DNA of 64,000 bases from Proteromonas lacertae (lineage: Eukaryota). Shown here piece by piece: positions 1 to 53,500 of this stretch (position 1 is its first letter; the number at the start of each line of letters is the position of its first letter). Under the pieces are notes generated by a model. That model had not been told where the DNA came from. It was given only the letters and a program-made list of their open reading frames with translations, and ran no database searches. The stretch spans positions 1 to 64,000 of the forward strand of contig NGBS01000016.1 in NCBI GenBank assembly GCA_002245135.1. The letters are read 5' to 3'. The position numbers and the translations under genes were made by a program.

Positions 1-3000
1 AAAACTTACTGTTAGATGCTAAAGAAAACAATAATATGGATTTTTACCAGTTCATTAATCAAAGAAAGTGATCATATAGATGTGAAATTACCATAAAGAG
101 TGAAAAAATGAAAATGTCAATTGGATATAAATATAATGGAATATTATTTGGATTAAAATAAAAGATAAATCAGAATATCCACTTATTCATTCTTGTTTAT
201 TAACAGATATTGGTAAAGAAAAGAATCATTTAGAAATAATGTTTAGTAAAAAGAATAAAGCATTAGAATTTGAAGGTGTGGATTTGCGAGATATTCCAGT
301 TACAGAGGATATGATAGAATACTATATCATAATAATAATTACATAATACCACATATAGATCCATCAGAAACAATAGATATACAGTTAAAACTTAATGATG
401 GATGGAAAATAATAACAATAGATTTAGATGTATATATTATCATAAATATAATGAAATAGAAATCATTAATGAACAATAAAAAAATGATGAAAATAATAGT
501 TAATAGAGTAGAAAATAATCTGAAGATTAATTACGGAGGTAAAGAAAAACTAGCAACTCTGTACATTTTAATGATAATATTAGATATGTATATATTGTGT
601 TTGTATAGAATGAATAGATTCAATTTAAAATTAATACAATTGACATAGAAATGATATACAAAGAAAAAGAAGAATACAAACAAGTAAAGATGAGATTTGA
701 GATGGATTTGAGAAAAGTGAAGTTAATGACTATAAATGCTTCATCCAATAATGTAATTGAGAATATATCAATTAATAATCAACATTCAAAACATGAAAAA
801 GAGAGTTCAAGTAATTATTATTGTGATTTGAATAATATGGAAATAGTTCTAGTAGAAAATATATCTTTTTAAAGTATTTCATTTACCAATTGTATTTCCT
901 TAATATTATATAAATAGATATTGTTGTTTCATCAATTCATTTCAATAATTTAAATATGCATCTGCCAATGATAGAATGTGAAAAATCATATTATTATACT
1001 TTGTGATGGAAATACATACTATTATTGATAAAAATGGAGTATTTATCCAATGTTATAGAAATGATGATAATTATCATGATTTATATAATAAAGAAATGAT
1101 ATTGTTACATATAGTAGAATAATTCCTTATATACCTCAGAATAGTATAGAAGATACAAAGAATTTTGTGATTGTTTTGATATTATTCTATCATGTATTAT
1201 AAATTCTATAGAAGAAAGAGATAATCCGTGGTATTATTGTTATTATTATAGTTTATATAGTAAGAATATTAATCAGTTACATTTGTGGAATTAGTGAAAA
1301 TGGAATATCGAATTTTTCAGATATTTTCATTAAACAATTCATAAAAGATTATAATCCAAAAGTATGCTATTGTTTTAAATGAATAATAATAGATGAATCC
1401 AATCAAACTATTGATGAATTTTAATCAAATAAAGCATGTATTCAACTATAAAAAGAATGGAAAATATACCAATGAAATTATAGAGATGGATGAATCATCA
1501 CTTCATTATGATCCAATATATGAAATCTTTACAATTCCTTTTGTATATGTTATTAGAATATAGTGAATTAGAATGATTATAAAGGCAATTATGAAATTGT
1601 TTATTGTAATGAAAAGAACATATCCTTTCTTTTTATTGTAATGATTATTATTTTCTTTAATACTTGTTTTAAGAGATATATCTTTGGTGTATCTCGTGAT
1701 TCTAAAGATGGATCATTGTTTCCTATTACAAGAATAACAAAAGAAAAGAATAATGAATATGGATATAAATCATTCAATTTTTTGAATGTATTTTTCTCAC
1801 TTTTATTTAATAGAAGAAAATGTATTATTATTGTGATGAAAATGACGTAATAATAACGAATTTATTAGTATTAACAGATGATTTAAAACCCAGAAAAATG
1901 TGGTTTAAGAAAGAATTTATATAAAAAAGTAGGTTTTGTCAGAATGGTTTATCTCTATATGTAACTCTTGACCATCCATACCATTTATGTTATCCAAATA
2001 AGTCTTTCTCAAATGAAGAAAATGATAAAAGAATAACATATTTCTCTTTCTCTGAAAATGCGAAGAATAGTATAACGTTTAATAGCAATACTGTGTATAT
2101 TCTAATCTATTCAAATTTGATTCAGAATATAAGTATAAATGTTTAGCTGAAAGTTCTTCCTATGGTAAATTGATTGGATATATATGTAAATATAATAAAG
2201 AAACGCATATGTTCTTTCATCCAATAGATAATCGAATAAAAGGATTTCACTTTACAAAAAACAAATATGGATTATTAATAATGGAAAGACTTAAAGAAGC
2301 ATTTAAACCATCTGGAAAAATGAAATTGAAATGCCATTTGGTTTGTCATCAGAATATAAATCAGATAAAAATGAAAATAATGTTATTAGAATTACTTCTA
2401 TTAAACAAGTAAATGATTTTCAAGTTTTATATTTATGGAAAAGTGATTATAGTCTTTTAAAATGGCTATTTTCAAGAGATGAAAGTTGTTATTTCTATTG
2501 TCTATATTATATCATTTTATTTGCATGACTTGAATAAGTTTCATTAATGATTTAGCTTATGGTGAATGTTTATTTAGTCAATATTACTTGGATAAGAATA
2601 ACAATGAAGCATTGTTTGGAGTAGATATAATAAAAAAGAAATGTATCTTTGGTGGTGATAATCATAATTATGTATAAATATATTTAATTGTAATGTAAAA
2701 TTAGGATTTATTTAGCAATATAAAAGGCTCAAATGTTAATGTAGTTAATAGTCATAATTATTATGATGTACATGATAAAAATGAATATGAAGATAAAAAC
2801 ATCAAAAGGAAAGACAGTATGTTACCTATCATTATATAGAAAATTATCTTAAATCTCAAAAGACAAATACCAAAATGACATATGATTTAGATAATTGCTT
2901 TGTTATTAAACTAGAAAAAGAAGTATATATTAATTTGATTAATTTTTATAGTTGATTATTCCTGATGAAACAATCAAATATAATGAAAAAGAATTCATTT

Positions 3001-3770
3001 TATCAGCAATATCTTATGATTGTGGATATACTTCAATTAATTACATTCGAGAATCTAACAAAAAATGGAAATGTGAGAATGGTAGCTTAATTGATTTTTA
3101 TGATGTAATTAATAAATCGTTGTTATATTTATCTATTCATTTATCGGAGATAAAGAACAAATATTTCTTATATGTTAATGAAGAGTTAAATATTGACAAA
3201 TTTCTGAATCATACAATTTTAGTACAAATGAAAATTGAAGATTTTATTTTTCCTGATTCTAATTTGCTAAATGATTATAACAAATCTGAGGAATGTAAAG
3301 AGTATTGCAAAGAGTTAAATAGATATTTAAATGACAAAGATAATATTAAAGGTAATAATTTTGGAAATGTTATACAAAGTAATGTTATGAAAAAATGTCA
3401 TAAAGAATTAGATAATTTTTACACATTTGAATCTTCGATAAATTTAGCTATTAAAGATTCAAAGAGGCAGCTACATCAACATTTGCAGGTTAATCAATAT
3501 AATAGTGGTGATTTAAATTTACCATTACCTAATTCTGAACCGCAGTCATCATTTACATTACAACCACAACAACAGAATATTCAACAGCAACAATATATAC
3601 TTCGACAATCACAACAATATATTCCTCAACAACAACAACATATCTATCAGCATAGTCAAAATATTCATCAATCACAAACTGAGCCGCAAGAAAAATATAT
3701 TTTACCATCAACACAGGATGAACAATGTGTAAAACCTAACACTTTCCCTCAAACATCATCATTATATTAA
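1..3770 (+). CDS. Orphan multi-exon gene A, copy 1 (5' part outside window; several frameshifts; Gln-rich C-terminal tail)
   Basis: ORF fragments 651-872, 1641-1850, 2170-2528 and 2952-3770 are colinear homologues of the fragments in 9154-14034 (shared FFHPxDNRIKGFHF, MPFGLSS, IRITSIKxVxDFQVLYL, IRxSNKKWKCExGSL). They are separated by GTAT..TAG introns. No recognisable domain. Confidence 0.7.
861..913 (+). other. Candidate U12-type (minor) intron, AT-AA, in gene A copy 1
   Basis: 5' end ATATCTTTT in phase 0 after ...VEN, branch site TTTCCTTAAT (895-904), ends TATAA. Same position as 11112-11165 in the paralog. Confidence 0.7.
1620..1673 (+). other. Candidate U12-type intron, AT-AG, in gene A copy 1
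   Basis: 5' end ATATCCTTT (perfect U12 donor), branch-like TTTCTTTAAT, ends TTAAG. Joins ...NEKN to RYIFGVSRD in frame. An internal GTAATG donor could also give an in-frame U2 intron. Confidence 0.6.
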
Positions 3771-4048
3771 ACATTATTATATAATAAAAGTTATGAATTA
3801 TATATTCTTGTTTTTATTATTAATATAATACTCTACATGAAAATAATAACCTACCTTCCAAAACTGTTAAAATGATAAAATCTTAAACAAACGCCATCCT
3901 GTTTCAATGGATGATTTTTTATGTATATAATATTGTTTTTCGATTTTTAATCAAACATATATGAATTATAAACCAATGCAGTATAATATAAATGTTATTT
4001 TCAATCATATTTATTATTTATTTTTGATAAATGTTAATGATTATTACC

Positions 4049-7000
4049 TTACTCTTCAAATTTATCATATTCAATCTTAAGAATATAATTTTCATCATCA
4101 TTTTTATCTTTCATTTCCTCTAAATTATCTACTTTGGAAAAAGAATCCAATGTTTCATCTTTCACATATTGCTTATTCTCAACTAATCCATATGAATGAT
4201 AATAGTTATCATATCCTAAAATACTTTTATGATAATTTATTATAATATCAATATCTTTAAAATTATTCGGATGTAAATATATAATTCCATTTTCATCATT
4301 TCCTTCTGTTTTTTCGTCTTTTTCTGGTACAACACATATAAATTCAAATGTTTTCCATTCTAATTTGTTTATCAACGATTTGATTCTTTTTGTAATTATA
4401 TACTTGATTTGTTTATCGTATAAAATTATACCATTTCTATCATGACATTTATTTCTGCTATTATGGACATGGATAAAGCAATTGTTTATCACATAAATCA
4501 TCTCTCCATTTCCTAATGTTTCTAAAAGAAGAAGATAGTATCCTTTTACACTAGTAGAATAAATTGGACAATTGAATATATCGTTGAATTCTATCAAATT
4601 ATCATTTGTAATAGGTATTATATTCAACCCTTTTTCATTTGTGTTATTACTTGTTCTTTTGTTAATTTCTGCACATATTAAACTATCTGTATAATACATA
4701 CATTTGCACCATACTAATTCTTGAAACAATAATCTATACGCTGGATTATCATATTCAGTTCTAAGTGATTTATAGAATATATATCTAATTATATTTATTT
4801 CATCTATTTTAGATGTATGTCTGATTGAATTGAACATATAATTTATTACTTCATTTGATATAAAGTTCATTTCATAATCGGCTATTTTAAAAATGTTAAT
4901 ATATGAATATTTTATTATAAAATGACATAAATTAATATCAAACTTTAGAAGTTCAGATATTTTGTAATAACTATCTTTACATGGGATTATATACTTTTTT
5001 ATGAAGTCTACAAACCCAAGATTGCCTATCACAATATTTATACCTTTACTATAAATTTCTTTCCAATAACTTCTGTTATAGTATAATTTATAAATAGCAT
5101 CAAAGTAAATATGGCGTGGAACAAATCCATATTTTTCTGATATATGATTATCTTTAATATATTGGCCAAAATTCTCAGGTAAACATTTTGTAATCCAGTC
5201 AGTTGTTTCTTCTGGAGAAAATACATCTAAATATAAACATTTACTATTATTACTATCATTATTAAAAAAATTTTCATAACTTTTCATATCTGGTGAACTA
5301 ATATAAAGTTCAAGAAGATGTTCATCTTCAGCTCTAATGTAATTATATGAATCTGATATTACAATATCAGCTATTTCATTATCCGTTCTCTTCAACTTAC
5401 CATTATTGCAAAGTTTATATATGACACATGTATTATTATGACTATTCTTATACACTAATACATTTAATGATTTCTTTTTACCTAAATATTTAAGCTGATC
5501 TTTAAAATAAAATAACTTACAGAGAAAATAGATGATAAAGGATGATTTACCTAGACCAGGATTGCTTCTAAGCAGGAAAATTTCTCCATTTTTACTTTCT
5601 TCATTAGTTATTATTTTATTCTTTTTCATTTCTAATATACACTCTTTCAATTTGTTCTTATATTCTTCTATTAACTGTTCTGTTGTTTTGTTTTTATCTT
5701 TTTCTATTTCTTGTTCATTTTGTTGAATATCTGCTTCTCTTTCTTGTGTATCTTTATTTATAATATCTATATTATTAAAATTGGTATTATCTTCTTCTTT
5801 TTCCTCCTCCTCATCATCATTTTCTTCTTCTTTTTCATTATTATTATCATCATCATCTTTAAATGATTTAATTAAATAATTCAATTTAATAGTAATTCTG
5901 AAATAATTCCATAGTTGTTTGTATGACTCTCTAACATACACTACTTGTTTAGGATACTGAAATACTTTACAATTTATATATATTTCATTTCCATTAATTA
6001 GAGGGAATCTTCTACCAAAAATTTTACATAATGAATCAACTTCTAATTAAATAAATAATAATAATAATAAATACTTGAACGACTTTTCTCTTTGTTTTCA
6101 TTTTCATTACTCTCGTCGCTTAGATGGATTTTTCTAGGTGGAAAAGGATTTTTACGTAAATCTTCTAACATTACTTCAAGTGTTTTTTCTACTTTATTAT
6201 TTGAATTAGTACGATTATTTATTTGATTTATTTGATTTGGTATATTAATATTACCCTTTTTACTTTTATCTTCTTCTTTCATATGTTCTTTTATTGAACT
6301 TTCTGAAAAAGCTTCTTTTTCAAATATAAACATTTTATCTTCTATTTTTTCATCTTTAAACTTTTCAAGAAAATCATCTGTAATAGTATGAGTATTAAAC
6401 TTCAATCTTAGACATCTTCGATATATTATTTGATCTTTTTCAGCATGGGGTATATTTTTCCAATCGTATATTTCATTCATTGTTTCATTCATTTCATATA
6501 TAAATGGTTCATAATCATCAAAATTTGGACTGCTAGCATCAATTCCAGTAGTTATCTTTTTATGATTATATACACAAAAATAAATTGGGAATATTGGATT
6601 AGTATATTTTAATTTCGATTCTATATCCATTTTTTCTTTCTTTTTTAACTCGCTCTTAATAGCCTATCAAATAATAGTATATATATATATATATACTTCA
6701 ATAATTTTACAATCATAATCTTCTGAATTAATTGAACAATCATACAGATAATCATTTAAATCATTCATTAATTTCATACAATTATCATTGATCTTTCCTA
6801 ATTCTATCAACTTACTTTTAATATCACTATTGAATGTTTTAATTGAATCTAATTGTATTTCTTTTTGTAATATAACATCTTTTAATCTTATTATCCTTTT
6901 AGGTTTATTAGTATTTTCTGTTTCATTATCTTCTTTGAGCTTTTGACTTTCTTTTTTTCTCTTATATATATCATTTTCCTCTTTAATTAATTTTTCATCA

Positions 7001-9110
7001 AGAAATTCATTTATTAAATCTTCATTATTTTTAATGAAGTTCTTGACTTCTTCTGGTATATTTTTTCTTTTCTTGATCTCATTAACCAAATACTATTTTT
7101 TAAATATTATATTATATATATTATACATAAAACTCTAACTTGGTCTTTTTATCATTATCTTTTACTAATTCATTTCTTTCACTATCAGGAATATATCCAA
7201 AGTTATATAGAGATGTAGAAATATCATCTATCTCATTTTCATTTTCTGATGTTTTATATTTATTATAACTCTCCATCAATTTTTCAATAATTTTTTCCTT
7301 ATATTTATTAAATAACATCTAATTATTATATTAATTATTATATATATACAGTAAAAAACACTATCACATTACTTTTGGTTTTATGTGTTGATGAAACTGT
7401 TATCTTAACACCAAAAATTGAACTTTTATCTATAAAACAACTGTCGATGGCAGGAAAGTTTTTATTCAAACTGAATTCTATATACCATGTTTTACTTAAA
7501 CTAAGATCTTCATTTAAAATGTCTATAAGATTTCTTTCTATTCCATTTATTGTTTCTAATATCACTGTTTTATCTATTCTAGCCAATTCTATTACCTTTG
7601 TCTTTAGAAAATAATGGCAAATTCTTTTAAAGAATAGTTCAATTCTGTATCTTTCAAACTCTCTAACTAATTGTTTGATTTCATCTGCATATTTGTATCT
7701 ATATAAAGGCATTAGATTCTTTAATAAATCTGACTGATATTTTAATTTGGTTGGAATAATATTATAACATTCTGTATCATATATAAAGAAATCTTCATCG
7801 TATTTATCTGGTAAATATTCAAATAATTCTTTTGTTTTATAATTATCATTTACTATTATTATTCCATTCTTACTGTTTATTGCATGTGCTATATTTCCAC
7901 CAAAATCTATTGCTTTCTTTAAATCTAAATCACTGCTATATCCATAATATTTTAATATGTCTTTCAACTCATCACCTTTAAATGGAGGAATATAAAATTG
8001 AATAGGTTGTCTCTTATTTCGAAATATCTTATATTTCTCTGAATTAGGTGATGATATCAAGATAATTATTGTATCTTGGCTGAATTCATCTTCACGAATG
8101 CATTCATTATCACTAATAATGATTGTAGGATGATCTTTTCTTTTAATTGGTATATCATTCATTCTTCTATATTCATTTTCTCCTGATTTTTTTACGAAAC
8201 ACGTTTGTTTATTTGTATTACCTCCACTAATAATTGCTATAATGTCATAATCATTAAATGCTTTTTCTTCTTTGAAAATATATGACAAATAATACCATAA
8301 GGTAGTCTTACCTATCTTCTTGTTGCCATATATGAGAAAACAACATTGAGGAAAAAAATTATTATCGTTCTTATTACAAACATCTCTACAATTCAAAAGT
8401 GTTTTTATTATATCTTTATAAATGTTCTTGTAACACTCTCTAACCATTATCCTATAATAATATTCTTTGCCTTCTTCATTTATATATCCTTTCTTATTAA
8501 GATTATTTTCTGAATTATAAACTGATTTAATTTCCTGTATTGGTTTTATTGGTTTTGGTGTGGATTTTGTTGCTAAATCTGTTAAATAAGTAATCTGAGA
8601 TTTTATTTCATTTTTTGCTTTTTTTGGAGATTCATCACTATTTTCATTCCATTTTCTTTTCACTTTTATTATACTGAAATTATTGCTCTTTACTTCTGAT
8701 GGCTTTTCAGTTGCTACTTCTTTATCTACGCTTGGAGTTATAAATGATCTGATTTCTTTCTTTCCTGCTGATAAAGATTCTGTGATCACTTCTTCTTCGT
8801 TGTCGTCTTCTTTGGGAGGTTCTGCTACTGATAATTCTAAGGAATAGGACGATTGTTCTTCGATGATGCTATCTTCATTGTAGTTTTGTTTTAAAGTTTT
8901 ACTTCTCTTCTGTGCTTCATTACTATTTGCGGCTAATTTTTCTGATGCTAGTGTAATTTCTGATTGCTTTCTTTTCTGTTTCTCTTCACCATTAATTTTA
9001 TAACTGACTCTGCTACGACTACTGCCACTAACACTGTTTTTGTTTTTGTTTTCTATATTTTTGGAACGAATAATGTAAAACTAAAAATATAAAACAAATG
9101 TGCTTGACAT
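4049..9110 (-). CDS. Crinkler/RHS-like protein B1: low-complexity N-terminus, P-loop NTPase 1, restriction-endonuclease-fold domain, coiled-coil linker, P-loop NTPase 2, divergent C-terminal domain (spliced, about 1,600 aa)
   Basis: ORFs 7338-8789, 7121-7318, 6667-7089, 6043-6630 and 4049-5941 are joined by short GTAT..TAG introns. Walker A motifs GNKKIGKT and SNPGLGKS, Walker-B-like IIISDN and IVISDS, SSP and G-x-x-PR motifs, and NFPAIDS...VKITVSSTH. The start near 9110 is uncertain. Confidence 0.75.
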
Positions 9111-9153
9111 AATCAAGCTTATATCATTCTGTGAGTTTTTAATTGAATTTAAA

Positions 9154-12100
9154 ATGCTTAACGCATATTTGAATAAATCTGAAGGTATCATCATATTATA
9201 TGTATGATATATTGATTAGTTTTCATTCCTTTGGAAAAGGTTTTGGAATATACAAAATCAGAAGATGAAGAAAAGGTATTGGATTGCTTTGAAAATTTAA
9301 TTATGAAGTGTGAAGAATATAATCAAATAGAATTATTTGAAATATATGTTAAATCTGTAAGTAAATATGTCTATAGGAAGATTAAAGGAGTTACAAAATA
9401 TGAAATATGAGAATATTCTAAAGACTGAGAAATATTATGCTATGATTGACTTTCTACTGCAATCTCCTTTCCCATTTCCTCATTGTTTATTGTTTGAGTT
9501 AATTGATCTTTTAAATTATGTGTATAGAAGTAAAATAATAATATTTTTTAGAATAGAAATCTCACAAAAGGATGGAATAATTAGTTTCTCTTTAAAGGCT
9601 GTTATAAGGATCAATTATTTCTCATTTATCTTACTGTTTATCACCAAACAGTTATAAAATGATTATTGACAAGTTCAAAACAAATAAATTATCAAAAGAA
9701 GCAAGTTTTCGTTCAACAAATATAGATAATGGGATAAGTGGGATATATGTTAACGATGGGAAGTTGTTACATATTCATTATAGTGATAAGAAAGTAAATA
9801 TCAAAAAAATAAAAATAACAGAAAGAGAAATATCAGCATATCAACTGAATGATTATTATTATTATTATAGAAATAAAGATGTATATATATATACATATAT
9901 ATATAACTGTTGTAATAGGATAAAATAATGAAAGTGAATCTTCTGTTTTGTAATGATGAAGAATGTTATTGGAAGAATGATTTTCTATTAGCTTATAATG
10001 CAGAAATTACATGGAATATAGTTAGAGATTCATTGACAAAGTGTTTGATATTTAGTATATATATATATATATATATAATGATTGTAATGTAAATTAATAG
10101 ATGAAAGTTTCTATTTAGAAACATCCAAAGAAATAGACTTTTCAGAAGAAATAGAAATATCATTTTACATAATCCCAAATGATATAGAAGAAGAATCAAT
10201 ATTACTTCACACAGATAAATGGGATATAATATTCCATAATGAAAACTTACTGTTAGATGCTAAAGAAAACAATAATATAGAATTGACTCCTATAAGTAAA
10301 ATAGGGAGATTTTATAAATGTAAAATTACAGTAAAGAGTGAAAAAATGAAAATAGTCAATTGGATATAAATATAATGGAATATTATTTGGATTAAAAATA
10401 AAAGATAAATCAGAATATCCACTTATTCATTCTTGTTTATTAACAGATATTGGTAAAGAAAAGAATCATTTAGAAATAATGTTTAGTAAAAAGAATAAAG
10501 CATTAGAATTTGAAGGTGTGGATTTGCGAGATATTCCAGTTACAAGAGGATATGATAGAATACTATATCATAATAATAATTACATAATACCACATATAGA
10601 TCCATCAGAAACAATAGATATACAGTTAAAACTTAATGATGGATGGGAAATAATAACAGTAGATTTAGATGTATATATTATCATAAATATAATGAAATAG
10701 AAATCATTAATGAACAATAATGAAAAAATGATGAAAATAATAGTTAATAGAGTAGAAAATAATCTGAAGATTAATTACGGAGGTAAAGAAAAAACTAGTA
10801 ACTCTGTACATTTTAATGGATAATATTAGATATGTATATCATTGTGTTTGTATAGAATGAATAGATTCAATTTAAAATTAATACAATTGACATAGAAATG
10901 ATATACAAAGAAAAAGAAGAATACAAACAAGTAAAGATGAGATTTGAGATGGATTTGAGAAAAGTGAAGTTAATGACTATAAATGCTTCATCCCAATAAT
11001 GTAATTGAGAATATATCAATTAATAATCAACATTCAAAACATGAAAAATCAGAGAGTTCAAGTAATTATTATTGTGATTTGAATAATATGAAGATGATTA
11101 CTATTCAATATATATCTTTTTCATTACTAGGATATATTTTTATTTAGTTATTTAACTAAATCTAATATCTTGTAAAATCACCTACTATTTATATAAGTGA
11201 AAATGAAAGTGAAGTTGACAATAGCAAAATCTCTTAACAAATTGTTTTCATGTGATGGAAATAATTGCTATATTATTGATAAGAACGGAATGTTCATTAA
11301 ATGTTATTATAATGACGATATTTATCACGATAGGCGAAATAATTCTTATAAAAAAGTTGTTTATAGTAGAATAATTCCTTATATACCTCAGAAAAATACA
11401 GAAGATACAAAGAATTTTATGATTGTTTTGAATATTATTCTATCATGTATTATAAATTCTATAGAAGAAAGAGATAATCCATGTATTATTGTTATTATTA
11501 TAGTTTATATAGTAAGAATATTAATCAGTTACATTTGTGGAATTAGTGAAAATGGAATATCGAATTTTTCAAATACTTTTCATTAAACAATTCATAAAAG
11601 ATTATAATCCAAAAGTATGCTATTGTTTTAATGAATAATAATAGATGAATCCAATCAAACTATTGATGAATTTTAATCAAATAAAGCATGTATTCAACTA
11701 TAAAAAGAATGGAAAATATACCAATGAAATTATAGAGATGGATGAATCATCACTTCATTATGATCCAATATATGAAATCTTTACAATTCCATTTGTATAT
11801 GTTATTAGAATATAGTGAATTAGAAATGATTATAAAGGCAATTATGAAATTGTTTATTGTGATGAAAAGAACATATCCTTTCTTTTTATTGTAATGATTA
11901 TTAATTTTCTTTAATATTTGTTTTAAGAGATATATCTTTGTGTATCTCGTGATTCTAAAGATGGATCATTGTTTCCTATTACAAATATATCTCCCAAAAT
12001 CATTGGAGGATATGAATCTAAATCCTTTGTTCTTTTTGGAGTATTATCTGTTTATTTATATATATATATATATGTTTTAGAATAGATTTTATTGTTGTTG

Positions 12101-14034
12101 TGATGACAATACTGTAATTACTAATATTATCATATTACCAACAAAAATAAAGCCCGATAGATTGTGGATTGAGAGAACAGTTTCATACAAAGTTATATTC
12201 TTTCAAAAATGGTTTATCTTTCTATATAACTCATGATTATCCATTTCAATTACAGAATCATGTAAATTGTTATACAGAAACGTTGAAATATCCATGTAAA
12301 TCACTTGTAGCAGAATATGATTCAAGTTTATTTGTTATTCCTGGTAAAGTAAATCAATGCTTCAAAGAAAAGAAAAAAGTAGTCACAGTTAATCAATCTC
12401 TTAAAGAGAATACTAAGTATAGTTTGACATATGGAGATGATGGTTTATATTATTGTAAAGTAGTAAAATTAGACTATCAGTATAAGTACAAATGTCTTGC
12501 TTATTCATCCAAAGGAAAATTAATAGGCTACATTTGTAGATATAATGACACAACTCATCTGTTTTTCCATCCTGTAGACAATCGAATAAAAGGATTTCAT
12601 TTTGTTCAAAACAAACAGGGAGTTATAGAAATGGAAAAGATATTAGAGAATTATATTCCATATGGAAAGAATGAAATACCAATGCCATTTGGGTTGTCAT
12701 CAAAATATTCACTAAAAGATAATAAGAATATAGTTATTAGAATTACTTCTATAAAAGCAGTTGACGATTTTCAAGTATTGTATTTAAAGAAAAGTAATTA
12801 TAACAAAGTAAAAAATATATTAGGAGGGGAGGAAAACAGTTGCTTTTATTGTTTATATTATATCTTTTTGTAGGTTATTTACAATCTTTAGTGTTTTTAA
12901 CAATGTATCTTTTGGTGAATGTTTATTTACACAATATTTCTATGATAAATATTACAAAATAGTATTGTTTGGAGTAGATGTAATAGAAAAGAAATGCATA
13001 TTTTGTGATTTTAAACAAAAGAATTTTGTATATATATATATCAATCTGTTGTATATTCTATAAATAGGATCTCTTTGAAAATATTACAGGATCAGATGTT
13101 TTGAAAAAAGAAAAGAGTTTAGTTTATGATATGGATAATATAATTAGTGAAGAAAAAGGAATAAGAAAAGAGAGTGTATATCATTCTATAATTTATATGT
13201 TATAATGATAAATAGTATAAAAGATATAGAAAATTCACAATCGAAGAGTATTTGAAATGTCAAAAGAATAGTGGAGAATTAGTATATGATTTAGAGGATT
13301 GTTTTGTAATAGAATTAAAATATCAAGTATATATATTATATTTCAATATCTAGTTGTATATTCCTAAAGAAAAGGTCAATTATAACGAAAGAATATTTGA
13401 TTTAGTTGTATTATCGTGTGATATAGGTGATAGTTCAATGAATTTTATTCGACAATCCAACAAAAAATGGAAATGTGAAGATGGTAGTTTGCTTGAGTAT
13501 AGTGAAATGATAAATGATTTTAACAAATGCGCTTCATCTCATTTACCTATATTAAAGTGTAAATATTTACTTTATGTGAATGAAAGAATACTTACAACAA
13601 ATAATTGGACTGATAATTTCTTACCTTCAGTTAGAATGGATGATTTTGTTATACCTGATAATGATGGATTAAATGAATATATACAATCTGAAGAATATTC
13701 AAAGCATAAATCTGAATTGGAAAAATATTTACAAAAATCAATTCCTGGTAGTAAAGTAATAATAGCAGATAATTGTGGAGAAGTGGAATTAGACAATAAT
13801 TTATCAAAGTTGTATAACGCTGAAATTCAACAGCAACAAAAACCAAAACAATCACCAACATTTTTACCTTCTTCAGAATCAACTCTACCATTACCATTAG
13901 ATTCTTCATCAAATATAAGTAATTTACCAATTACATATACTCAACCTCAACTTCAACCACCGCAACCACAACCACAACCACTAGATCCAGTAGAGTCAAT
14001 AATTTATTTACCTAGTTCAGAATCATATTATTAA
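9154..14034 (+). CDS. Orphan multi-exon gene A, copy 2 (apparently full length; Pro/Gln-rich tail; some frameshifts)
   Basis: ATG at 9154 (MLNAYLNKSE) followed by a GTATC..TAG intron. ORF pieces 9659-9928, 10479-10700, 11197-11586, 12169-12873 and 13354-14034 are homologous to copy 1. Confidence 0.7.
11112..11165 (+). other. Candidate U12-type intron, AT-AA, in gene A copy 2
   Basis: ATATCTTTT donor after ...TIQY in phase 0, branch-like TATTTAAC, ends TCTAA, then YLVKSPTIY. Equivalent to 861-913 although the surrounding DNA has diverged. Confidence 0.65.
11873..11927 (+). other. Candidate U12-type intron, AT-AG, in gene A copy 2
   Basis: ATATCCTTT donor, TTTCTTTAAT branch-like motif, ends TTAAG. 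Paralogous to 1620-1673. Confidence 0.6.
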
Positions 14035-14138: not shown

Positions 14139-16522
14139 TTATGAATCTAACAATTTTAACGCTTCACTCTCTAAATCATTCACATTATTATCCTCTTCTT
14201 CCTCCTCTTCTTCACTTTCATCTGATAATTTATTCACATCATCATCATCTTCCTCTTCATCATCATATTCATTTCCTAATTCAACACCATTCTCTATTTC
14301 ATTATCATTATCATTATTATCTTCTTCTTCTCCTTCTTCTAATTCATATTCTTTTCTTTGTTTCTTCATCAATAATCTCTTTTGTTTAATTCTTTGTTTC
14401 TCTTTCTGTTTTGATATAACATCAGCCTTTTCTAACTTCGATTTAATCATTTCTGTTATTAATTGACTTTCTTTCTTCAATTCTTCTTTATCTAATTCAT
14501 CTATATCTTTGATATTTATTTCATTATTATTATCTTCATTTTCACTGTCACTAAATATAATATGTTCACCTGAACCAACCACTTTGCCATTTTTAATTTT
14601 TAATTTTTTCTTTGGATTTAATACTTTATTAGTTGTATCTATTGATATATTATGTTCATTCATTATATCATCAATATTAACTGCTTTTCTTTTAACTCTT
14701 AATACATCATCTTCTTCATTTTCATTATCTTCTTCTTCGAGTTTTGATTTTGATTTTTTTATGGTTTTTAGTTTAGTTTCTACCTCTTTTTCTACATCAT
14801 CATCTTCTTCTTTCTTCTTCCATTTCATTATTTCCTATTTTCTTTTTACTCTTTTCTTCTTTCTTTTTCAATTTCTTTTCTTCTTTTAATAACTTCTGAT
14901 TTTCTCTCAGCTTCTGTAGTTTTAATTTCTTCTTTTGTGATGTCTCTCTTGATTCATTCTCTTTTAATTCTAATTTGGGCATTATCGCTAAACCCATAGA
15001 TTCTGCAAATTTACCTTGATCAATCTCATTCACTTTAAATACCTCTTTATTTGGCATTAAATAAATAGATCGTAAATAACATGTAAATGCTTTCTGTGCT
15101 AAAGATTTTAACTCCACATCCTTTCGCTAATAATTGAGATAAAGTTTGGGTCATCGAAACTTTTTTCTGGGGATTAACGGATATTTTTTGTAATGGTATT
15201 TTTTTATTGGCTAATATCTCAATCATTTTTATTTCTGATGGTAAGAGTAGTAATAATCCTTGACCATTGTCTTTGTATCTTGCTGTTCTACCTACACGAT
15301 GAATATAACACTCATAATCTTCAGGACAATCGTATTGTAACACCCAATTCACTTTAGGAAAATCTAATCCTCTTGCTGCTATATCAGTACAAAATAAAAT
15401 AGCACATTCTTTCTCTAAGTACAAAAAAATATAAATTAAAGAAATTCAAAAAAATAAATTCGTTACATAAAAGGATATAAAATCAAAATATTCATAAGTT
15501 CTCATTGATTGTTTCTGTCTTCCATGTATTTGCATCACTGGAACACCTGGTTTAATTTGTCGAAATGATTCATACAAAAACCTCACTTCCTTACAGCTAT
15601 TCACAAACACTAATATTTTACATTTTAAATGACTTTTTATAAATGAATATAATATGTCCAATTTCTCTTCAATTGGAACAATCATATATCTTTGTACTAA
15701 TTGGTCAGGTGTTGCTAAGGCATCTTTATCATGAACTCCAATATATTCAGGATGGTTTAAACTCAACTTAACTAGATTACTGATAGATTTATTTTGTGTT
15801 GCACTAAACAAGAGGTTTTGACGTGTGTTTGTAGGAGGTAAATAACTTAAAATGTCATTTAATTGTGTTTCAAAACCCATATCCAATATTCTATCTGCTT
15901 CATCAACTACTAAAATTTGAATTGTACTTAAATCAAAATCTGGTGTTTGTTGAAGGTGTTGTAATAATCTACCAGGTGTTGCTACTAAGATATTCATTTT
16001 ACATATTCTTATTTGCTCTTCTTTGAAATCTTTTCCTCCTGTTACTAAACCAGCAGAATATATATGAAATTTACCTACTGATCGTAATATTTCGAATATT
16101 TGTAATGCCAATTCTCTTGTTGGAGATAATATTAATGCTCCTAGACCTAATTCAGTATCCCACTTCTCATGATACAATTTCTCAAGTACAGGGATTATAA
16201 AAGCAAGGGTTTTACCAGATCCTGTTTTTGCAGCACCTAAAATATCTCTACCAGCTAATGCGTGAGGTATTGCAGCTTTTTGAATATCAGTCATTGTCTC
16301 AAATTTTGCCGACTTTAATCCATTCAATGTAATATGTGAAATAGGTAATTGATCAAAATTTGTTGCATTTCCATACAAAACACCTGGAGCAGGTGTCTCT
16401 TCCATAATTCGTTCTTTCAGCTGTTTAATTTCAGCATCTTCTGATTGAAATTGTTTAATTTTTGTTGGTTTCTTAAATTTCTTCTTGTTTTTATTCATGA
16501 GGTTTGATGATAAGTTTGGCAT
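14139..16522 (-). CDS. DBP4: DEAD-box RNA helicase DBP4/DDX10 (one AT-AC intron; apparent 1-nt indels near 15120 and 14830)
   Basis: Motifs GAAKTGSGKTLAF, SPTRELALQ, VDEADRILDMGF, LFSAT, TDIAARGLDF and YIHRVGRTAR, plus AQKAFTCYLRSIYL and an acidic C-tail typical of DBP4/DDX10. Confidence 0.9.
15419..15478 (-). other. U12-type AT-AC intron in DBP4
   Basis: The minus strand reads TATTTTGATTTT|ATATCCTTTT...TTTCTTTAAT...TGTAC|TTAGAGAAA. Removal gives YEYFDF-LEKECAILFCTDIAARG and eliminates an in-frame stop. Confidence 0.9.
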
Positions 16523-17128: not shown

Positions 17129-17332
17129 GAGTATCATTGCTTAAATTATTTATTTATTCGTTATTTGTGTTTGTTGTTTATTTAACAGAGCATTGATATC
17201 CAGAGTTGTTGATTACTAAATACAATGACTTTAATGACTCTTTTGAAATGTATAAAAAAGATATATTGTATTAACTTGATTCAAAGCTTGAATTCAAGGA
17301 TTGTAAATATTATATCATTTTGCGTTTTTCTG

Positions 17333-18484
17333 ATGCTGCATGGCGTAAATCCCGAAACAAAAGCATCAACTCGTAAGCCAACGAATAACTGGAACTCATC
17401 TAACCTAATAAACACCCGTAAATATACTGTTTTACATTCTAAACATCTGTCTTCTTCTTCAGGTAGATTGATCGCTTCTGAACAAGAACTACAGCTGGCT
17501 AATGATTGGCTATACTATATTACTTATTATGCCCTCAATGAACATTCATCACCGCCTCCTCAAGTATCTACGCAAATAAAACCTCCACCCGCAGCTATCG
17601 TCACAAGAAAAGATCAGCCAAGGAAGTCTAGAACAGAAATAGAAGATTTTCATTTTAAAGATGCTGTTAATACTTATCAGCAACTAGAAAAAGAAGAAAT
17701 TATGTGTAGAAATTGTCAGCAGCAGTCAAAGAAAGTAAATTCATTTGGATATCATGATGGTTTTATCTGCATGAATTGCGCAGCTAAAGCCTATTCAAGA
17801 ATTAGTGAGTTAGTAGATTGGGAAGAAATAGTAGAGAACGGAAGAGGAATTCAATGTGATAGACTTAGACATCAGAAGAAACTAAGTTCATTTATAAAAT
17901 TCGAAAATAAAACTGGAACTTACAAAAGAGTTAAACTATGTATATTCTGTCGAAATGTGAAGAGATGGGAATATTCTAGAAAATCACTTTATCCATCGCC
18001 TGCTACTAAGAATCCACATTCACCTACTAGTAATATCAATAATAATAATATGAATATTAGTTTGAATTGTAATACTTTAATATCTCCCAAGAGAAGAAAA
18101 GTGGATGAATTAGTGCCAATTTTACCAAGACCAGTAGTTGATTTTGATAATAAAAATAATAATATTCCAATACCTATGCCAATTCCTCAACCTAATAATA
18201 ATAATAATCCAAACCAACCACCTCCACCACAACAACAAACACCGCTTGTACCAATCGCTTCATCATTACCATCTGCTAATATTATTGTACAACAACAACA
18301 ACAACAACCATTACCATTACCTCAATCTATTGTTTTATCTGATATTCTACAACAGCAACAGCAACAAATACAACAATCTTTACAACAAAACCAACAACAG
18401 AAGCAAAACCAACAACCACCAATACAACAACAGCAACAAATTCAACCTGTAGAAGCAAACAGCAACAAGTACAACAAGAATTAA
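17333..18484 (+). CDS. Double zinc-finger protein with Pro/Gln/Asn-rich tail (family member 1)
   Basis: CRNC...CMNC...DWE...CDRLRH...LSSF...CIFCRNVKR, basic PKRRK and a poly-Q tail. The ORF is open from 17225; the start codon is uncertain. Confidence 0.7.
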   Translation: MLHGVNPETKASTRKPTNNWNSSNLINTRKYTVLHSKHLSSSSGRLIASEQELQLANDWLYYITYYALNEHSSPPPQVSTQIKPPPAAIVTRKDQPRKSRTEIEDFHFKDAVNTYQQLEKEEIMCRNCQQQSKKVNSFGYHDGFICMNCAAKAYSRISELVDWEEIVENGRGIQCDRLRHQKKLSSFIKFENKTGTYKRVKLCIFCRNVKRWEYSRKSLYPSPATKNPHSPTSNINNNNMNISLNCNTLISPKRRKVDELVPILPRPVVDFDNKNNNIPIPMPIPQPNNNNNPNQPPPPQQQTPLVPIASSLPSANIIVQQQQQQPLPLPQSIVLSDILQQQQQQIQQSLQQNQQQKQNQQPPIQQQQQIQPVEANSNKYNKN

Positions 18485-20532: not shown

Positions 20533-20734
20533 ATTTATAGTTTATTTGTTATTTGATTCACTTTGTAATTAGAAAAAAGCAAATTGATTATCAAGCCAAT
20601 TTTAATGACTCGAAGCATTTTCTAATGATTAGAAATGGAATGATATGTATAATTTATTCATATAATAACAGAAACAGTATATAAAATATTTACTGGAATA
20701 AAATTACTAATTCACCCTTATTTACTGATGTTAC

Positions 20735-21175
20735 TCAATGGAAAGATGCTCTTTTCATTTCATATACATCATGTATGTTCCTGCAATATATACAAAATGG
20801 TGATTGGTAATAATCTTTATTATTTCTTTTGCAACAAATAAAAGAGCTTAATGTTCTTTTATTTTTGCAGCTATGACATTCAATAGTTCCAACATAACAC
20901 CAATCTTTTAGATCGCACTTATTAATTGATCTACGTGCAGTACATCCTTTGCAAACATAGAACTTTTGGTTGTATTCAAATGTATCAATCCTTTTCACAG
21001 TTCTTAAGCATATATAGCATGTAACTGATTGTTTTTCTAATTTCTGATATGAACCTAATTCTTGTGCACATATACCTTTTGGCAGTTCAGTGTTTATTTT
21101 ATTATGTCTAAGATTCTTTATTCCTTTCTTTAGCGCTATTTTTGTTGATGAAGCATGTGTTACTGATTTTGCCAT
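20735..21175 (-). CDS. Double zinc-finger protein (family member 2; may extend 5' to about 21395)
   Basis: CYIC...CKGC...DW...CHSC...LSSF...CIYCRN aligns with members 1 and 3. Confidence 0.65.
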   Translation of the reverse strand: MAKSVTHASSTKIALKKGIKNLRHNKINTELPKGICAQELGSYQKLEKQSVTCYICLRTVKRIDTFEYNQKFYVCKGCTARRSINKCDLKDWCYVGTIECHSCKNKRTLSSFICCKRNNKDYYQSPFCIYCRNIHDVYEMKRASFH

Positions 21176-21546
21176 TATACTGGAGGGTTCTATTAGGTGT
21201 AATATATGATTTATCCAGGATAATTAATTGGAGAATAGACTAATACTAGTGTTTATTAGGTGCACTTGCGCTAGCTACAGGGAGAATATTAGAGATGTTT
21301 AATAAGTTGATATGTTGAAGTTGTTTAAGGGGTATGTTATCCCCTGCATGATGAATGAAGTATGGATGTTGGTTGTAATTTACTCTACTGTTCATTATTT
21401 ATTTGTCAACGTATAGAAACGAATAAATTTTATTTTAATTTGGAACAGTTGAATGGTCTTTATGTTATTACTCATGTTTCAATGGAATTTTGATAATAAT
21501 AAAAAATGACACAGTATAGAATATATAAATTAAACAAATAATTTAT

Positions 21547-22197
21547 TTATAGACTCACTAATTGAATTTTAGCCTTTTTGATTGGATGTTCAGCAATAAT
21601 ATTGTTGCCTTTGCACATCTCACCTTCATCTCGAGATCTTTTTTTGGTTTGTTTACGTAAGTATTCAAATCGTTTTACATTTCTACAGAAAATACAAAGC
21701 TGACCTATTTCATATTCTCCAGATTTATTATTATACCTCACAAATGAACTCAAATCTTTAGAGTGTTTTATTCGTTGACATTGGCATGTACTATCAGATA
21801 AATTGTCTTCCATTTCATGTTCCCAATCAGGTAATTGTCCAACTTCTTCATATATTCTAACAGAACAATCGAGACATGTATATCTGTCATCCTGTCCAAA
21901 AGACTTCAACAACTCTACGCTATTATTACACATACTGCATTTCACTCTTTTACACTCTATACTTCTATATTTCTCTATTGCTTGGTTAATAATCTCTTCT
22001 GTATATTCAAACTTTGGCTCTTTATTATATTTTGAGGGTCTTCTTCGTTTATTATTAGTTCTTTGAGGTATTGCTGATGGAATTATACATTGTTGTAGAT
22101 AGATTGGAACTAATGAGTAGGTAGCATAGGGAAACGATTGATCATTATTAACTGGAATAAATGCATGTGGTTGGAGTATTTGATTTTGTTCATACAT
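21547..22197 (-). CDS. Double zinc-finger protein (family member 3)
   Basis: CSMC...SFG...CLDC...DWE...CQRIKH...LSSF...LCIFCRNVKRFEY, with basic KRRRP and KKRSR motifs. Confidence 0.75.
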   Translation of the reverse strand: MYEQNQILQPHAFIPVNNDQSFPYATYSLVPIYLQQCIIPSAIPQRTNNKRRRPSKYNKEPKFEYTEEIINQAIEKYRSIECKRVKCSMCNNSVELLKSFGQDDRYTCLDCSVRIYEEVGQLPDWEHEMEDNLSDSTCQCQRIKHSKDLSSFVRYNNKSGEYEIGQLCIFCRNVKRFEYLRKQTKKRSRDEGEMCKGNNIIAEHPIKKAKIQLVSL

Positions 22198-22468
22198 TCT
22201 GTTTTATGAAGAGATGTAAAAATAAACTGACTATATTTTTTTGTTAATTTTTATATGTAAAGTTATTTTTTACATAACAAACGGAAATAGCTTTACGATT
22301 TTACAGTGAATGTCAGTAGTGCGTTTTAACTTCATTTTATAATACTTTTACTTATGAAAATTTTTACATGTTGATATGTGTCATCTACACTTCTTTTTGT
22401 TTCTTAATCATCCCATACCTTTACAAAAAATATGATAGTCATAATTATGGGTATAAAACTAACTAATT

Positions 22469-48552: not shown

Positions 48553-50562
48553 ATGGTAGTAGTGTGTGATTATTTATTTGTAATATTTTTGTTTTCAATG
48601 TACATAAGCAGTTGTATGGGGATTAAAATAGGATATATTGTTAAAACTACTTTATCAGTAGAATTTGATTTTCTATCAGCTTACATTACTAAAATAAATG
48701 ATAATCAAAGAGAGCGAAATTGAGCTAGTTAAAATAGATAAAGCTAATGCTAATTATATGGAAACGTTACAAGATGAAGAATTATCTGTTGCCACATCGT
48801 TATGTCAAGAAAATGTGGATGATAATATGAAAATTGACCTTGTTAATAACAATGTGGTGTTATGGTGTGCAGATTTAGCAGTAGTTGGTGATTGTAGTCG
48901 AGATATGATTAATGGAATGTCAGTTACACCATCTTTAGAGCAATGTATAATTATTTTTATATTTTAATAGCCATGCACATACTTGCAACGCAATATCCTC
49001 TTAATTTTGCTATTATATTGGATGGGACATTAGAAGTAACACCATTTTACTATGAAAGAATAATTCAACTCAATAAAATTCTACAATGGCTCAGTAGTTT
49101 TTGACATTCATAATACAACATTAACTGCAGACAATTTAGCAAATTATGAAGATAAATTAAAAGAATATAAAGATAATGGAGTAACAACTATTTTATTACA
49201 CAACACAATGGATAAAATAATGGAAATATTTAATCAAAGAACAGATAAATATTTAGCTCCAAAATATCCTATGTTATTATTAGAGGGTGGATTAACATAT
49301 GCTGAAATTAGTGCTGATAGTAGATATAATAGTAATTATGATGTTGGTAATTTATATATTCGATCTTATTATTCTGAAATTAATAATGAAAAGAATACTC
49401 TTTATAAACAAATTCATAGTAGTGATCCATCTTTTGCTAGTTTAACTGAAAGTAAAGGTGCAGTTTTGTATATAGTTATTATTATTATTATTTATTATTT
49501 ATAGAACTGGTGTTGTTGATTTAATCGGTTATGCAGCTGATCATGTTCCTACAAGAAAGATATACACAATGTTTACTTATTTGTATGATAAACCGTTTGA
49601 ATTTGCTGGTGGTACTATCATTTTAAGAACTAATCATATGATGACTTCAACTCATTATATTGGTATTGTAACGAAAGATACAACTAGTGGTGATGTTAAA
49701 TTAGTATATAAACATATAATTGAACCAGATGTTACATTTGAACCAACACAATTTGAGAATGAAATTGTTGAAGTTGGTTGTAATTTTATCAATAACCCTG
49801 TAGATGGATCTTATAAACCTGATTATTTACCGATTACATTCATGTTAGACATGAGTTTATATCAATCTAAAGTAGTTTATCAATTTATAAAAATGTATTT
49901 TGATAATATCAATGCAAATAAGCCAATATTAGATAAGATATTATTCCCACTGATGTATAACATACTTGATGGATCTGAAGTAATTAATAAGAAATTATTA
50001 GAAATGATTGACAAATATGACGCTAGAACAATATTTTTAATGACTTCAGAAGAAGATAGAGTTCAGTTATACACATTTTTAAAGGGTTATGATACAGAAA
50101 TATTCTACATTGGTCCAAATGAAGCTGAGATTTGTACAAGTGATTTGATATTTGGAGATTTTGTAAATGAAGTTTATGTTGAAGAAATATATAAATATGT
50201 TAGGAATATTGGTAAAATAAGAATTGCTTTAATTGGTAGTCCAATGTCTTATGGTACTCATACAAGGACATTAATAAAAGAATATTTCAATGAACAAGGA
50301 ATGGATATAAAGATTGTATCTGAACAAAATATTCAAAAACCAACAGAATTAGAAGCAAATGTGACTGTTGATTCGTTTATTGAATTGTATGGTTTAGTGA
50401 ATGATACAGTTGTTATTATTACAGCAGAAAATGAGTATTTACCATATTTATATAAAGCATTTTATCAAAAAGGTATTAAAACTGCAAATGGTTTTACATT
50501 TATTTCATTGAATTTAGATCAATTGATTGTAGATGGAACAGGTAGTGAAAATGTATATAGAA

Positions 50563-50598
<36 letters not shown>

Positions 50599-53500
50599 GT
50601 TTAATGGAACAATGTTTATCAGCTACAGTAGTAATGAAATGAATTCACAATCATTAGATATATTCTATAAATCATTTTCTGATTTAACTGGAAAAGAAGT
50701 ACCATTTACACAAACTATTGCTTTTATTTTCAATTTAGTGTCTTTAATCACTGATGCAATATTGTCATCTTCATCTGTTTCACCTGAGTATTATAGAGAA
50801 TATTTATATCATACAATCTTAAAAGAACCTTCATATGGTAAATATGAGATATATTCGAATGGTATTGCTAGAGGTGAAATACATATGTTCCAATTAGATG
50901 AGAATAATTTAGCTGAAATTGTTTATTCACCTAATTTTATAAGTGAAAGTTATGCATTTGTGAATAAGTCTAAAACTTGTGCTTTTAGTAACGGAATAAT
51001 GAATGAAGGATATACTGATATTTATTATATTGGAATTATCTATAATTTGAATTCAAAAATAGATATTACTACTGTTGATTCGTTAAGTTTAGTTTTAGAA
51101 TTAATCAATTTAGATGGTGGTTTAAATGGAAGAATTGTATTACCAGCAACACTGAAATGGATAGTTGGAGATAATGAAGATATGAAGAAAGAAATGGAAC
51201 ATCTATTCAATACAACAAATCCATTATTTGTAGTTGGAACTGATGATGAAAATAGAAGAAAAGTATTATCTCCAATTCTAGAAAAATATGATAAATTATG
51301 TTTTTCATTGTTAATTAGTGGAGGTGAAACTGAACATCCGAATATAATTCAAATGAATGCAATTCCCAATCAATTATTTTCACTGCCATTAATGTATTTC
51401 TTACAGAAAACACAAAAATATATCATATTATATGATTCATCAGTTGATTATTCAAAGAAATTATATGATTATTTGATTCTATATGTTGAAAGTATTAAAC
51501 AGAATCCTGCCTTTGTTGTTGATGTAGAAAGTTACAAAACTTATGATAAGATTGTTGATGATATTGAGGGAATTGTAGGAAATGATGAAGCTTTTATTAT
51601 TTCATTTATTGATCAACAGACTGAACCATTTCTTACTGAATTTGATTCAAAAGGATTATCTAAAGATAAAATATCAATTATTCTAATGGATATGTCTATT
51701 AGAGTTTATTTAAATGCAAACAATTTGACTGTATTTTATGGTTGCTATTTCTTCTCATCATATTCAACAGAAGGAACTTCGTTATTAAATACTGCTTTAA
51801 TCCAAACAGTAACAAACTATAAAGGAGATCCATTGCAATTATTGGATGATGTAACAATGGCATTTTATAATTCATATTTATTTATGAAAGCAGCAATAGA
51901 AGTTAATTCAAATGATTTGAGCAGTTATACAATAAAGTCATATTTATATTCATATCCTGTTGATACACCAGTTGGACCATTGAATTTAGAAACGTCGAAT
52001 TATGTTGATATTTATCCACATATATTGTTATATTTGAATGATAGTCAACCTATTATAGCTAAAATGACTTCTGCTGTATCTCCACAAGTGTATTATAATC
52101 TATTACATAATGATCAATTTATATCAACAGATTATTCTAAGAATCCACCAGATATTCAAACAAAAATTGATTATATTGGATTAGCTTTTATGATGAATTT
52201 AAATGATCGAGTTCATTATCATGCTTATATTGATTTTGCATTAGCAATTCAAGAAATTGAGAAATATAATAGTGAGGGAGGAATAAAAAAATACAAAATC
52301 AGATATGAATTATACAATTGTCCTGCTGATGAAGAATCTGCTGCTGGTTTGTTGGTAAATATGAAAGTTAGAGGATTTACATACATAATTGGTGGTTGTG
52401 GACCAGAAACAAAAAAGTATATGAAGAATACTTTAGATTCAGTTGATATGATCTTGTTTTATACAGAATTGAACACTGGTGAAGAATGTTTAAAGAATAT
52501 AATTTATACAACACTTTCTCCATATCAAGAGATATATCCTATTGCTCTTAGATTGTTATATGAAAGAGTAACAAATCCAATATTCGTATATGAAGATTCT
52601 TCATATTTTTCATCAAGAGTAAAGTTAATAGAATCTATATTTAATGGATTTGATACAAATATAGCATATGAAATGAAAGTTGATCCTAATAACTATGAAA
52701 TCTCAATTGATGGCGAAATGGGTGAACTAAGAAACAGAATTTCAACTTCACCACATATTTTATTGTTATTACAATATGAAAGAATTGATTATTTCCTTGA
52801 AATGTTTTATAAGAAAGTATGTGATTTGAATGGAATGAGTTTAGATGATTGTATTAATACTTATTCAATTTATATTATTGATGAAAGCCAAAGTGTTTAT
52901 AATGGAGAATATGCTAGAGGAAGAACTGTTTATTCTGCCTTTATGAATGATGGTTCTGAAGATTTCTTGAAATTCTATGAAGATGCACATAATGTTGGTG
53001 GTTCAAAGTTTAATCCAAACTTTTATGATTCATTTTTAGCTATTGACACTGAATTTCTATTAGTATCAATGCAAAATGCATTATCTGTGTCATTATCAGA
53101 AATTAGAAAACAAATTTATGTAACATCCATGAATTCTGCAGTTGGTTTAGTTGAAATAGATTCAGGTAATCATGTGATTGATGCTCTATCGATTGGCTAT
53201 GTTCAGAAAGATGGAACAGTTAAATATCAAGAGACTTTGACAAAAACATGGGAAACAAATACATATAGAACTACTTTGAATATGAAGGAATATGAATATT
53301 GTGATTGGAATCCATCAACTCCTACAGAAGAACAAGGAAGTGAAAAGATACAAGAAGTTGTAAATATCGGAGTTGTTATACCAATTAGTTCATATTTTAT
53401 TGAAGAAGGTATTTCATTTATTGCTTCATTATATGCTGGTTCTATTGATATTAATAAAAATGGAGGAATAGAAGGAAAGAGATTGAATTTTATATTCTTT

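Follow-up and report, generated by a model that had tools for sequence, protein, structure and literature searches.

We analysed a 64,000-nucleotide stretch of Proteromonas lacertae DNA (contig NGBS01000016.1, positions 1 to 64,000; hereafter, the window) and found that it carries two copies of a gene, here called gene A, in which three introns per copy are probably removed by U12-type (minor) splicing. No relatives of gene A were detected outside what appears to be a Blastocystis-related lineage, and the introns were possibly gained within that lineage. Copy A1 lies at 1..3770 on the forward strand, with its 5' part beyond the window edge and 12 modelled introns; copy A2, on the same strand, occupies 9658..14034 and has an uncertain start codon and 14 modelled introns (11 major and 3 minor-like). 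A first-pass annotation of this DNA had proposed two U12 positions in gene A. The AT-AA motifs (861-913 and 11112-11165) and AT-AG motifs (1620-1673 and 11873-11927) on which it relied are present, and a third pair, 2509-2555 and 12860-12908, which it had missed, is the best supported of all.

This third pair, intron 3, is in phase 1 in both copies. In A1 (2509..2555, forward strand) it has AT-AG ends, a length of 47 nt, the donor variant ATATCATTT and a candidate branch site at 2541-2548; in A2 (12860..12908, forward strand) it has AT-AT ends, a length of 49 nt and a candidate branch site at 12894-12901. The two introns are 60% identical, and once they are removed the joined exons align gap-free, with 69% and 82% identity. 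Both were independently selected by the gene model, which, given a free choice, also selected 861-913 for intron 1 of A1. When the U12 options were withheld, the model that had chosen these three introns scored 19-26 log units lower.

The best independent evidence for intron 3 is the read-through seen in homologues from other assemblies, where the donor is deduced from protein. A HMMER search with the upstream exon (226 amino acids) against 1.84 billion representatives returned two proteins, both Logan entries, and a profile search gave four clusters with 10 proteins in total, from Logan assemblies and 34-44% identical to A2. All 10 open reading frames (ORFs) break at intron 3: after the conserved residues CLY come YIF (six proteins), YIL (three) or CIL (one), which are translations of the phase-1 donors ATATCTTT, ATATCCTT and GTATCCTT, whereas a typical major donor after CLY would encode CIY or CII. 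Nine of the 10 stop at most 12 residues past CLY. The homologue P0123 continues to LMVNV, which is the next exon read out of frame, as in unspliced A1; this read-through would imply a 59-nt intron with Tyr as its last codon and, therefore, AT or AC as its end. In two other homologues of the 12860 region, P0147 and P0148, the read-through tails are identical but for the donor codon, which encodes Tyr in one and Cys in the other; judging from the protein, a single AT-to-GT change that switched the subtype of a U12 donor would produce this difference. When JGI metagenome contigs were scanned twice with gene A alignments, none of the 428 and 240 pattern matches proved to be a relative.

The gene A duplication was detected by self-BLAST and alignment, and the copies form a mosaic of identity. 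One near-identical block (93..841, forward strand) matches 10331-11089 at 97.4% and ends about 20 nt 5' of intron 1; a second (1112..1731, forward strand) matches 11364-11984, also at 97.4%, and has intron 2 inside it. Positions 842-1111 of A1 and everything beyond 1731 are about 60-80% identical to A2. The borders at 841, 1112 and 1731 are sharp (97% vs. 60-70%), pointing to tracts of gene conversion or to a chimeric consensus.

Intron 1 lies in the diverged sequence. In both copies it is a phase-0 AT-AA intron on the forward strand, of 53 nt in A1 (861..913, branch site at 897-904 without mismatches) and 54 nt in A2 (11112..11165, branch site at 11149-11156 with two mismatches). The donor is ATATCTTTT in both, and the branch octamer lies 9 nt from the 3' end. 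Overall identity between the copies is 64%, falling to 52% between donor and branch site. Despite this divergence of the intron body, the copies agree in donor, phase, length and the position of the branch site, as had been claimed, with the two mismatches of the A2 branch site as a reservation. Each copy of the intron contains in-frame stops, which its removal takes out; the homology of the flanks is weak.

The case of intron 2 is different. It is a forward-strand AT-AG intron of 54 nt in A1 (1620..1673, phase 0, branch site at 1654-1661) and of 55 nt in A2 (11873..11927, branch site at 11908-11915, alternative acceptor at 11929), and both copies have the donor ATATCCTTT and a one-mismatch branch site 12 nt from the end. 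Since the two are 96% identical and sit within the 97%-identical block, their joint presence says nothing about retention; the retention in both paralogs that had been claimed is upheld for introns 1 and 3 only. Moreover, because intron 2 of A1 is stop-free and a multiple of three in length, U12 splicing, splicing from an internal GT and retention all keep the frame, and its U12 status would rest on the quality of its motifs. It is doubtful, though worth weighing, that intron 2 is instead spliced by the major spliceosome from an internal GTAATG, adding six residues, or retained as a hydrophobic stretch of 18 residues. In line with this, the gene model kept intron 2 of A1 as coding, and when the exon pair around the intron was searched for longer proteins, none of 18 candidates scored, so that no homologue covers it. 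On the other hand, the best U12 donor of gene A is found here, the branch octamer is the same as in a DDX10 intron described below (spacing from the donor 34-35 vs. 36 nt), and the retained peptide is rich in I and F, a type given by T-rich introns. The in-frame GTAATG does exist, at 1638 in A1 and 11891 in A2. Its proposed role as a U12-to-U2 conversion intermediate would be possible at intron 2, but found no support. Our major-intron sets (40 introns outside gene A; 45 donors) are taken from our own gene model, and among the 45 donors GTATAT occurs 25 times, GTATAA six times, GTATTT five times, GTAATA once and GTAATG never. In-frame internal GT-AG options also occur within introns 1 and 3 of A2, as expected by chance in T-rich sequence; we therefore rejected GTAATG as a special signal and regard it as probably a chance cryptic site.

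Frame-restoring introns with the same signals are found in two conserved genes of the window. The NMD3 gene has an AT-AA intron of 52 nt on the reverse strand (24115..24166, phase 2) with a perfect branch site and the donor ATATCTTTTT, which is identical to that of intron 1 of gene A. Among seven in-frame lengths, 52 nt is the only one that restores the I-L-C-C motif, a loose version of which is present in 84 of 120 NMD3 homologues. The AT-AA end is thus anchored by homology, which shows a conserved gene of this DNA using both this donor and an AA end. In three close NMD3 homologue ORFs, P0128, P0130 and P0136, the similarity gives way after about 87 residues to tails that look like intron sequence, at a place where the window (23226-24119, reverse strand) is continuous, suggesting that close NMD3 relatives may differ in their introns. 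The second gene, on the reverse strand, encodes a DDX10/DBP4-like helicase: its upstream ORF ends inside Pfam Helicase_C (profile positions 1-56 of 110) and is linked by the gene model to the next ORF through a 60-nt AT-AC intron in phase 0 (15419..15478). In both the NMD3 and the DDX10 intron the distance from donor to branch site is 36 nt.

The motifs were then considered jointly. A sequence resembling TCCTTAAC is the U12 branch consensus. Of the 18 strict ATATC[C/T]TTT sites on both strands of the window, five (two being copies of each other) are followed, 25-50 nt downstream, by a branch octamer that deviates from the consensus at no more than one base; 100 dinucleotide shuffles yielded 0.32 such pairs on average and never more than 2. 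When two mismatches were allowed, 10 pairs of donor and branch site were obtained, while the shuffles averaged 2.1 and reached 7 at most. A branch site of the stricter quality (no or one mismatch) is absent from all 40 modelled major introns. The spacing between donor and branch site is 32-37 nt in all eight U12 candidates, a range derived from the candidates themselves; among the 26 remaining donor-like sites two show it, and each of these is antisense to a long ORF. Within gene A, the form [G/A]TATC[C/T]TTT given in a Physarum preprint fits five of the six donors, intron 3 of A1 having A at +6; four of the six branch sites have no or one mismatch to the consensus and two, both in A2, have two mismatches. 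They lie 7-12 nt from the intron end, and 7-16 nt across all candidates. Further donor-like sites at 1678, 2643, 11932, 12905, 46228, 37133, 58247, 17264 and 63497 were rejected as coding or antisense, and those at 20646 and 38259 (reverse strand) as lying outside any convincing gene. The U12 identity that had been claimed is hence backed by the motif statistics, by the NMD3 and DDX10 introns and by the read-through at intron 3, and not by the frame test at intron 2, which does not discriminate.

In place of the six candidates of 52-60 nt counted in the first pass, there are eight, at five independent positions, with lengths of 47-60 nt. Their excess over major introns was confirmed: the 40 major introns measure 23-53 nt, with a median of 32.5 nt (p = 2.4e-4 for the five independent positions). 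All eight start with AT and end with AA (three), AG (three), AT (one) or AC (one), and three of the five positions are in phase 0. AT-AA, AT-AG and AT-AT are known variants of U12 ends (PMC10639083; 10.1101/2020.10.12.336362), and the exact ends in gene A are inferred in error-prone sequence. A high density of minor introns, as had been claimed, was not established. Outside gene A, two of about 45 introns are minor (95% confidence interval 0.5-15%; p = 0.07 vs. 0.98% in Blastocystis ST1), and all positions together give 5 of about 59 (confidence interval 2.8-18.7%) in a window that was selected for its minor introns. For three minor introns among the 14 of one gene, p is 3e-4 at a background of 1% and 0.02 at 4.4%.

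It is established that U11 and U12 bridge the donor and the branch site of minor introns and that the acceptor is set by distance. In gene A, U11 would base-pair to the ATATCYTT donor and U12 to the branch site 32-37 nt away, and this bridging would impose a minimum span. The 3' end would need no particular AC or AG and would be chosen by how far it lies from the branch site (7-16 nt), leaving the last base variable. Together, the two constraints would explain both the AA, AG, AT and AC ends and lengths above those of the major introns, of about 30 nt. No match to U11, U12, U4atac or U6atac was found within the 64-kb window, which is the part of the genome that was searched. As to history, introns 1 and 3 would be older than the gene A duplication, because their positions are shared in diverged sequence, and intron 3 would also predate the split from the family members of 34-44% identity, because these show the protein read-through. 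Intron 2, instead, would be shared through a recent conversion or duplication tract.

Minor introns have been described in the closest known system, Blastocystis. In ST1, 346 of 35,412 introns are of the U12 type, in 319 genes, and all four minor small nuclear RNAs are present (PMC5608401); another survey reports 253 minor introns, 77% of them AT-AC and 49% in phase 0, with a median of 39 nt and recent gain as a possibility (PMC10639083). Our candidates, from what may be a sister lineage, resemble those of ST1 in being short, AT-starting, longer than the major introns and in phase 0 at three of five positions. They differ in that AT-AC occurs at one of five positions (one of eight introns), in their length of 47-60 nt and in the occurrence of three in one apparently lineage-restricted gene. 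The published Blastocystis counts may overlook non-canonical ends. Low-GC Blastocystis isolates have longer and variable introns, and the word "minor" is absent from that paper (PMC10690189). In Physarum polycephalum, the donor [G/A]TATC[C/T]TTT, including T at +6, conservation between paralogs and a mass recent gain have been reported; the non-canonical set comprises 1,014 introns in a total exceeding 20,000, AT-AG accounts for 29%, AT-AA for 27% and AT-AT for 8% of this set, and the branch motif is changed to TTTGA (10.1101/2020.10.12.336362). Gene A shares with Physarum the donor form, the predicted AT-AG, AT-AA and AT-AT ends and the conservation between paralogs. Our candidates differ in their classical branch site and in the predominance of non-canonical ends, as judged from very few introns, and the data do not show a mass gain. 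In animals and plants, AT-AA is the commonest non-canonical U12 end, with AT-AT second in animals, and such ends make up about 4% of conserved minor introns, catalogued in conserved genes (PMC10639083). The AT-AA and AT-AT ends predicted here agree with this. Every single feature has a precedent, and the sample is five positions.

The interest of these introns lies in the question of recent gain, an uncommon event for minor introns. Larue and Roy leave a recent gain of the phase-0 minor introns of Blastocystis open and ask for comparison within the clade (PMC10639083); minor introns in an apparently lineage-restricted family of a probable Blastocystis sister would be a direct test. If non-canonical ends truly predominate, the published minor-intron counts of the clade are too low and gene models are wrong at these sites. 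More speculatively, and with the odds against it, this could be the second lineage, with Physarum, in which minor introns are still being created, with several per cent of introns of the U12 type, young families as hosts and an almost free last base; in that event the minor spliceosome would specify just the two opening bases and a distance of about 35 nt from donor to branch site, and standard annotation would miss most of these introns. No paper joining "Proteromonas lacertae" and "minor spliceosome" was found in the literature reached, which included few subscription journals, and no paper found there gives the minor-intron status of NMD3, DDX10 or ubiquitin-specific protease (USP) genes.

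No relatives of gene A were detected except Logan proteins, which have no stated source organism. The 226-residue exon was searched widely, and the other exons were compared with Pfam, PDB and the ESM Atlas or used in one short-word search. Single exons of gene A matched no named family in Pfam, in PDB sequences (best E 0.13) or in the ESM Atlas (best E 0.75); in Pfam, five gene A ORFs had no family at E 0.01 and single exons no UCH match. By eye, the last third of gene A (12826-13791 in A2; 2475-3401 in A1) resembles a degenerate USP, with Cys-box-like and His-box-like patterns flanking it; a second, fainter unit may lie around 11364-11984. It is conceivable, although rather unlikely, that the introns are real and old, gene A being a diverged ancient gene, such as a degenerate USP, that inherited them. 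This would be compatible with the U12 splicing proposed here. Minor introns are mostly old (PMC10639083), and intron 3 lies just past the Cys-like residue of the presumed Cys-box-like pattern. Two AlphaFold models of gene A were obtained, both unreliable (predicted local distance difference test, pLDDT, 36). With the one of the last exon, Foldseek gave USP15 or USP14 in 3 of the 49 matches listed (E 1.9-2.6) and VIA gave USP14 in 4 of 24 (Z 2.2-2.4), three of these pairing model residues 9-64 with chain residues 412-472; all are below significance. In a wide VIA search, every Z value stayed below 5, and none of the 50 matches listed had a USP title. The absence of a Pfam family at the above threshold, the mere two Logan proteins among 1.84 billion representatives and the rarity expected of three ancient minor introns in one gene also speak against inheritance. 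The lineage-specific gain claimed in the first pass is thus plausible in view of the Logan-only relatives and unproven in view of the possible USP-like third; given that the introns are real, gain and inheritance appear about equally probable.

Several observations weigh against U12 splicing of three gained introns. Copies A1 and A2 require about 13 and about 8 frameshifts, so that gene A may be decaying, and single-base errors could have moved the inferred intron ends. In A2, the gene model put the 3' end of intron 1 at 11161 and not at 11165, and that of intron 2 at 11931 and not at 11927. Introns 1 and 3 of A2 each have a two-mismatch branch site and a rival in-frame GT-AG intron, at 11147-11197 and 12870-12891, respectively; the donor of the former rival, GTTATT, is atypical and matches none of the 45 modelled major donors. 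The model preferred retention of the stop-free intron 2 of A1. The homologue evidence consists of protein only, with degenerate codons, and covers intron 3 alone, and the weak matches to USP14 and USP15 catalytic domains leave gain versus inheritance unsettled.

The frameshifts raise the unlikely alternative that the copies are decaying pseudogenes or mis-assembled repeats, whose motifs would be relics, or in part artefacts, that are not spliced today. With the fixed intron set, A1 has 1,122 codons in the window and 13 frameshifts as assembled, A2 has 1,283 codons and 8, whereas the gene between them, of about 1,590 codons, needs none; the mosaic of 97% and 60-75% blocks also fits such an origin. 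Nevertheless, comparison of the copies over the two near-identical blocks shows 13 substitutions as against 14 one-base and two 3-base indels, and one-base indels about equal in number to substitutions are typical of long-read consensus error. After splicing, neither copy has in-frame stops, which is partly by construction, as frameshifting lets the model bypass them. Isolated frameshifts occur also in single-copy genes: DDX10 and two others need one each, and the single-base shifts near 15127 (DDX10-like), 45365 (cyclic-nucleotide-binding) and 39351 (kinase with leucine-rich repeats), all on the reverse strand, indicate residual assembly errors. Finally, intron 3 is backed by homologues from other assemblies. 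The frameshifts of gene A are probably consensus errors in repeated sequence, with decay as the alternative. It is very improbable that the ATATCYTT strings arose by chance in a region of 22% GC and that gene A is spliced by GT-AG introns throughout: looser donor matches do occur 51 times vs. 32 expected, and A2 offers the GT-AG alternatives mentioned, but the joint statistics of donor and branch site exceed the shuffles, a GT-only model needs an extra frameshift or loses the conserved CLY (A1 introns 1 and 3), and P0123 implies an intron ending in AT or AC.

The window is eukaryotic DNA, with a GC content of 22-33% and short GT-AG introns. In a quick single-gene FastTree analysis of its NMD3 exon with 120 homologues, the sequence groups with Blastocystis sp. 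Blastoise (P0016) and one further sequence (SH support 96), on a long branch, and we take this to indicate no more than a stramenopile related to Blastocystis, which could be a deep member of that genus or a sister lineage from the gut. A signal recognition particle RNA lies at 27754-28037 on the forward strand (Rfam RF01855, 113.7 bits). Two related long genes, at 4049-9080 (reverse strand, between the gene A copies) and 28438-33730 (forward strand), have two P-loop NTPase-like modules each; the latter alone gave weak Pfam P-loop matches, and it contains an OTU protease domain (Pfam E 4e-5). We take both to resemble Crinkler/RHS-type proteins. Small genes at 17213-18484 (forward), 20735-21223 (reverse) and 21547-22203 (reverse) share a cysteine-rich motif, have no significant Pfam matches and possibly form a lineage-specific zinc-binding family. 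A very long gene at 48600-60271 (forward strand) resembles class C G-protein-coupled receptors, with at least eight periplasmic-binding repeats, a 7tm_3 domain and an ORF of 3,223 codons.

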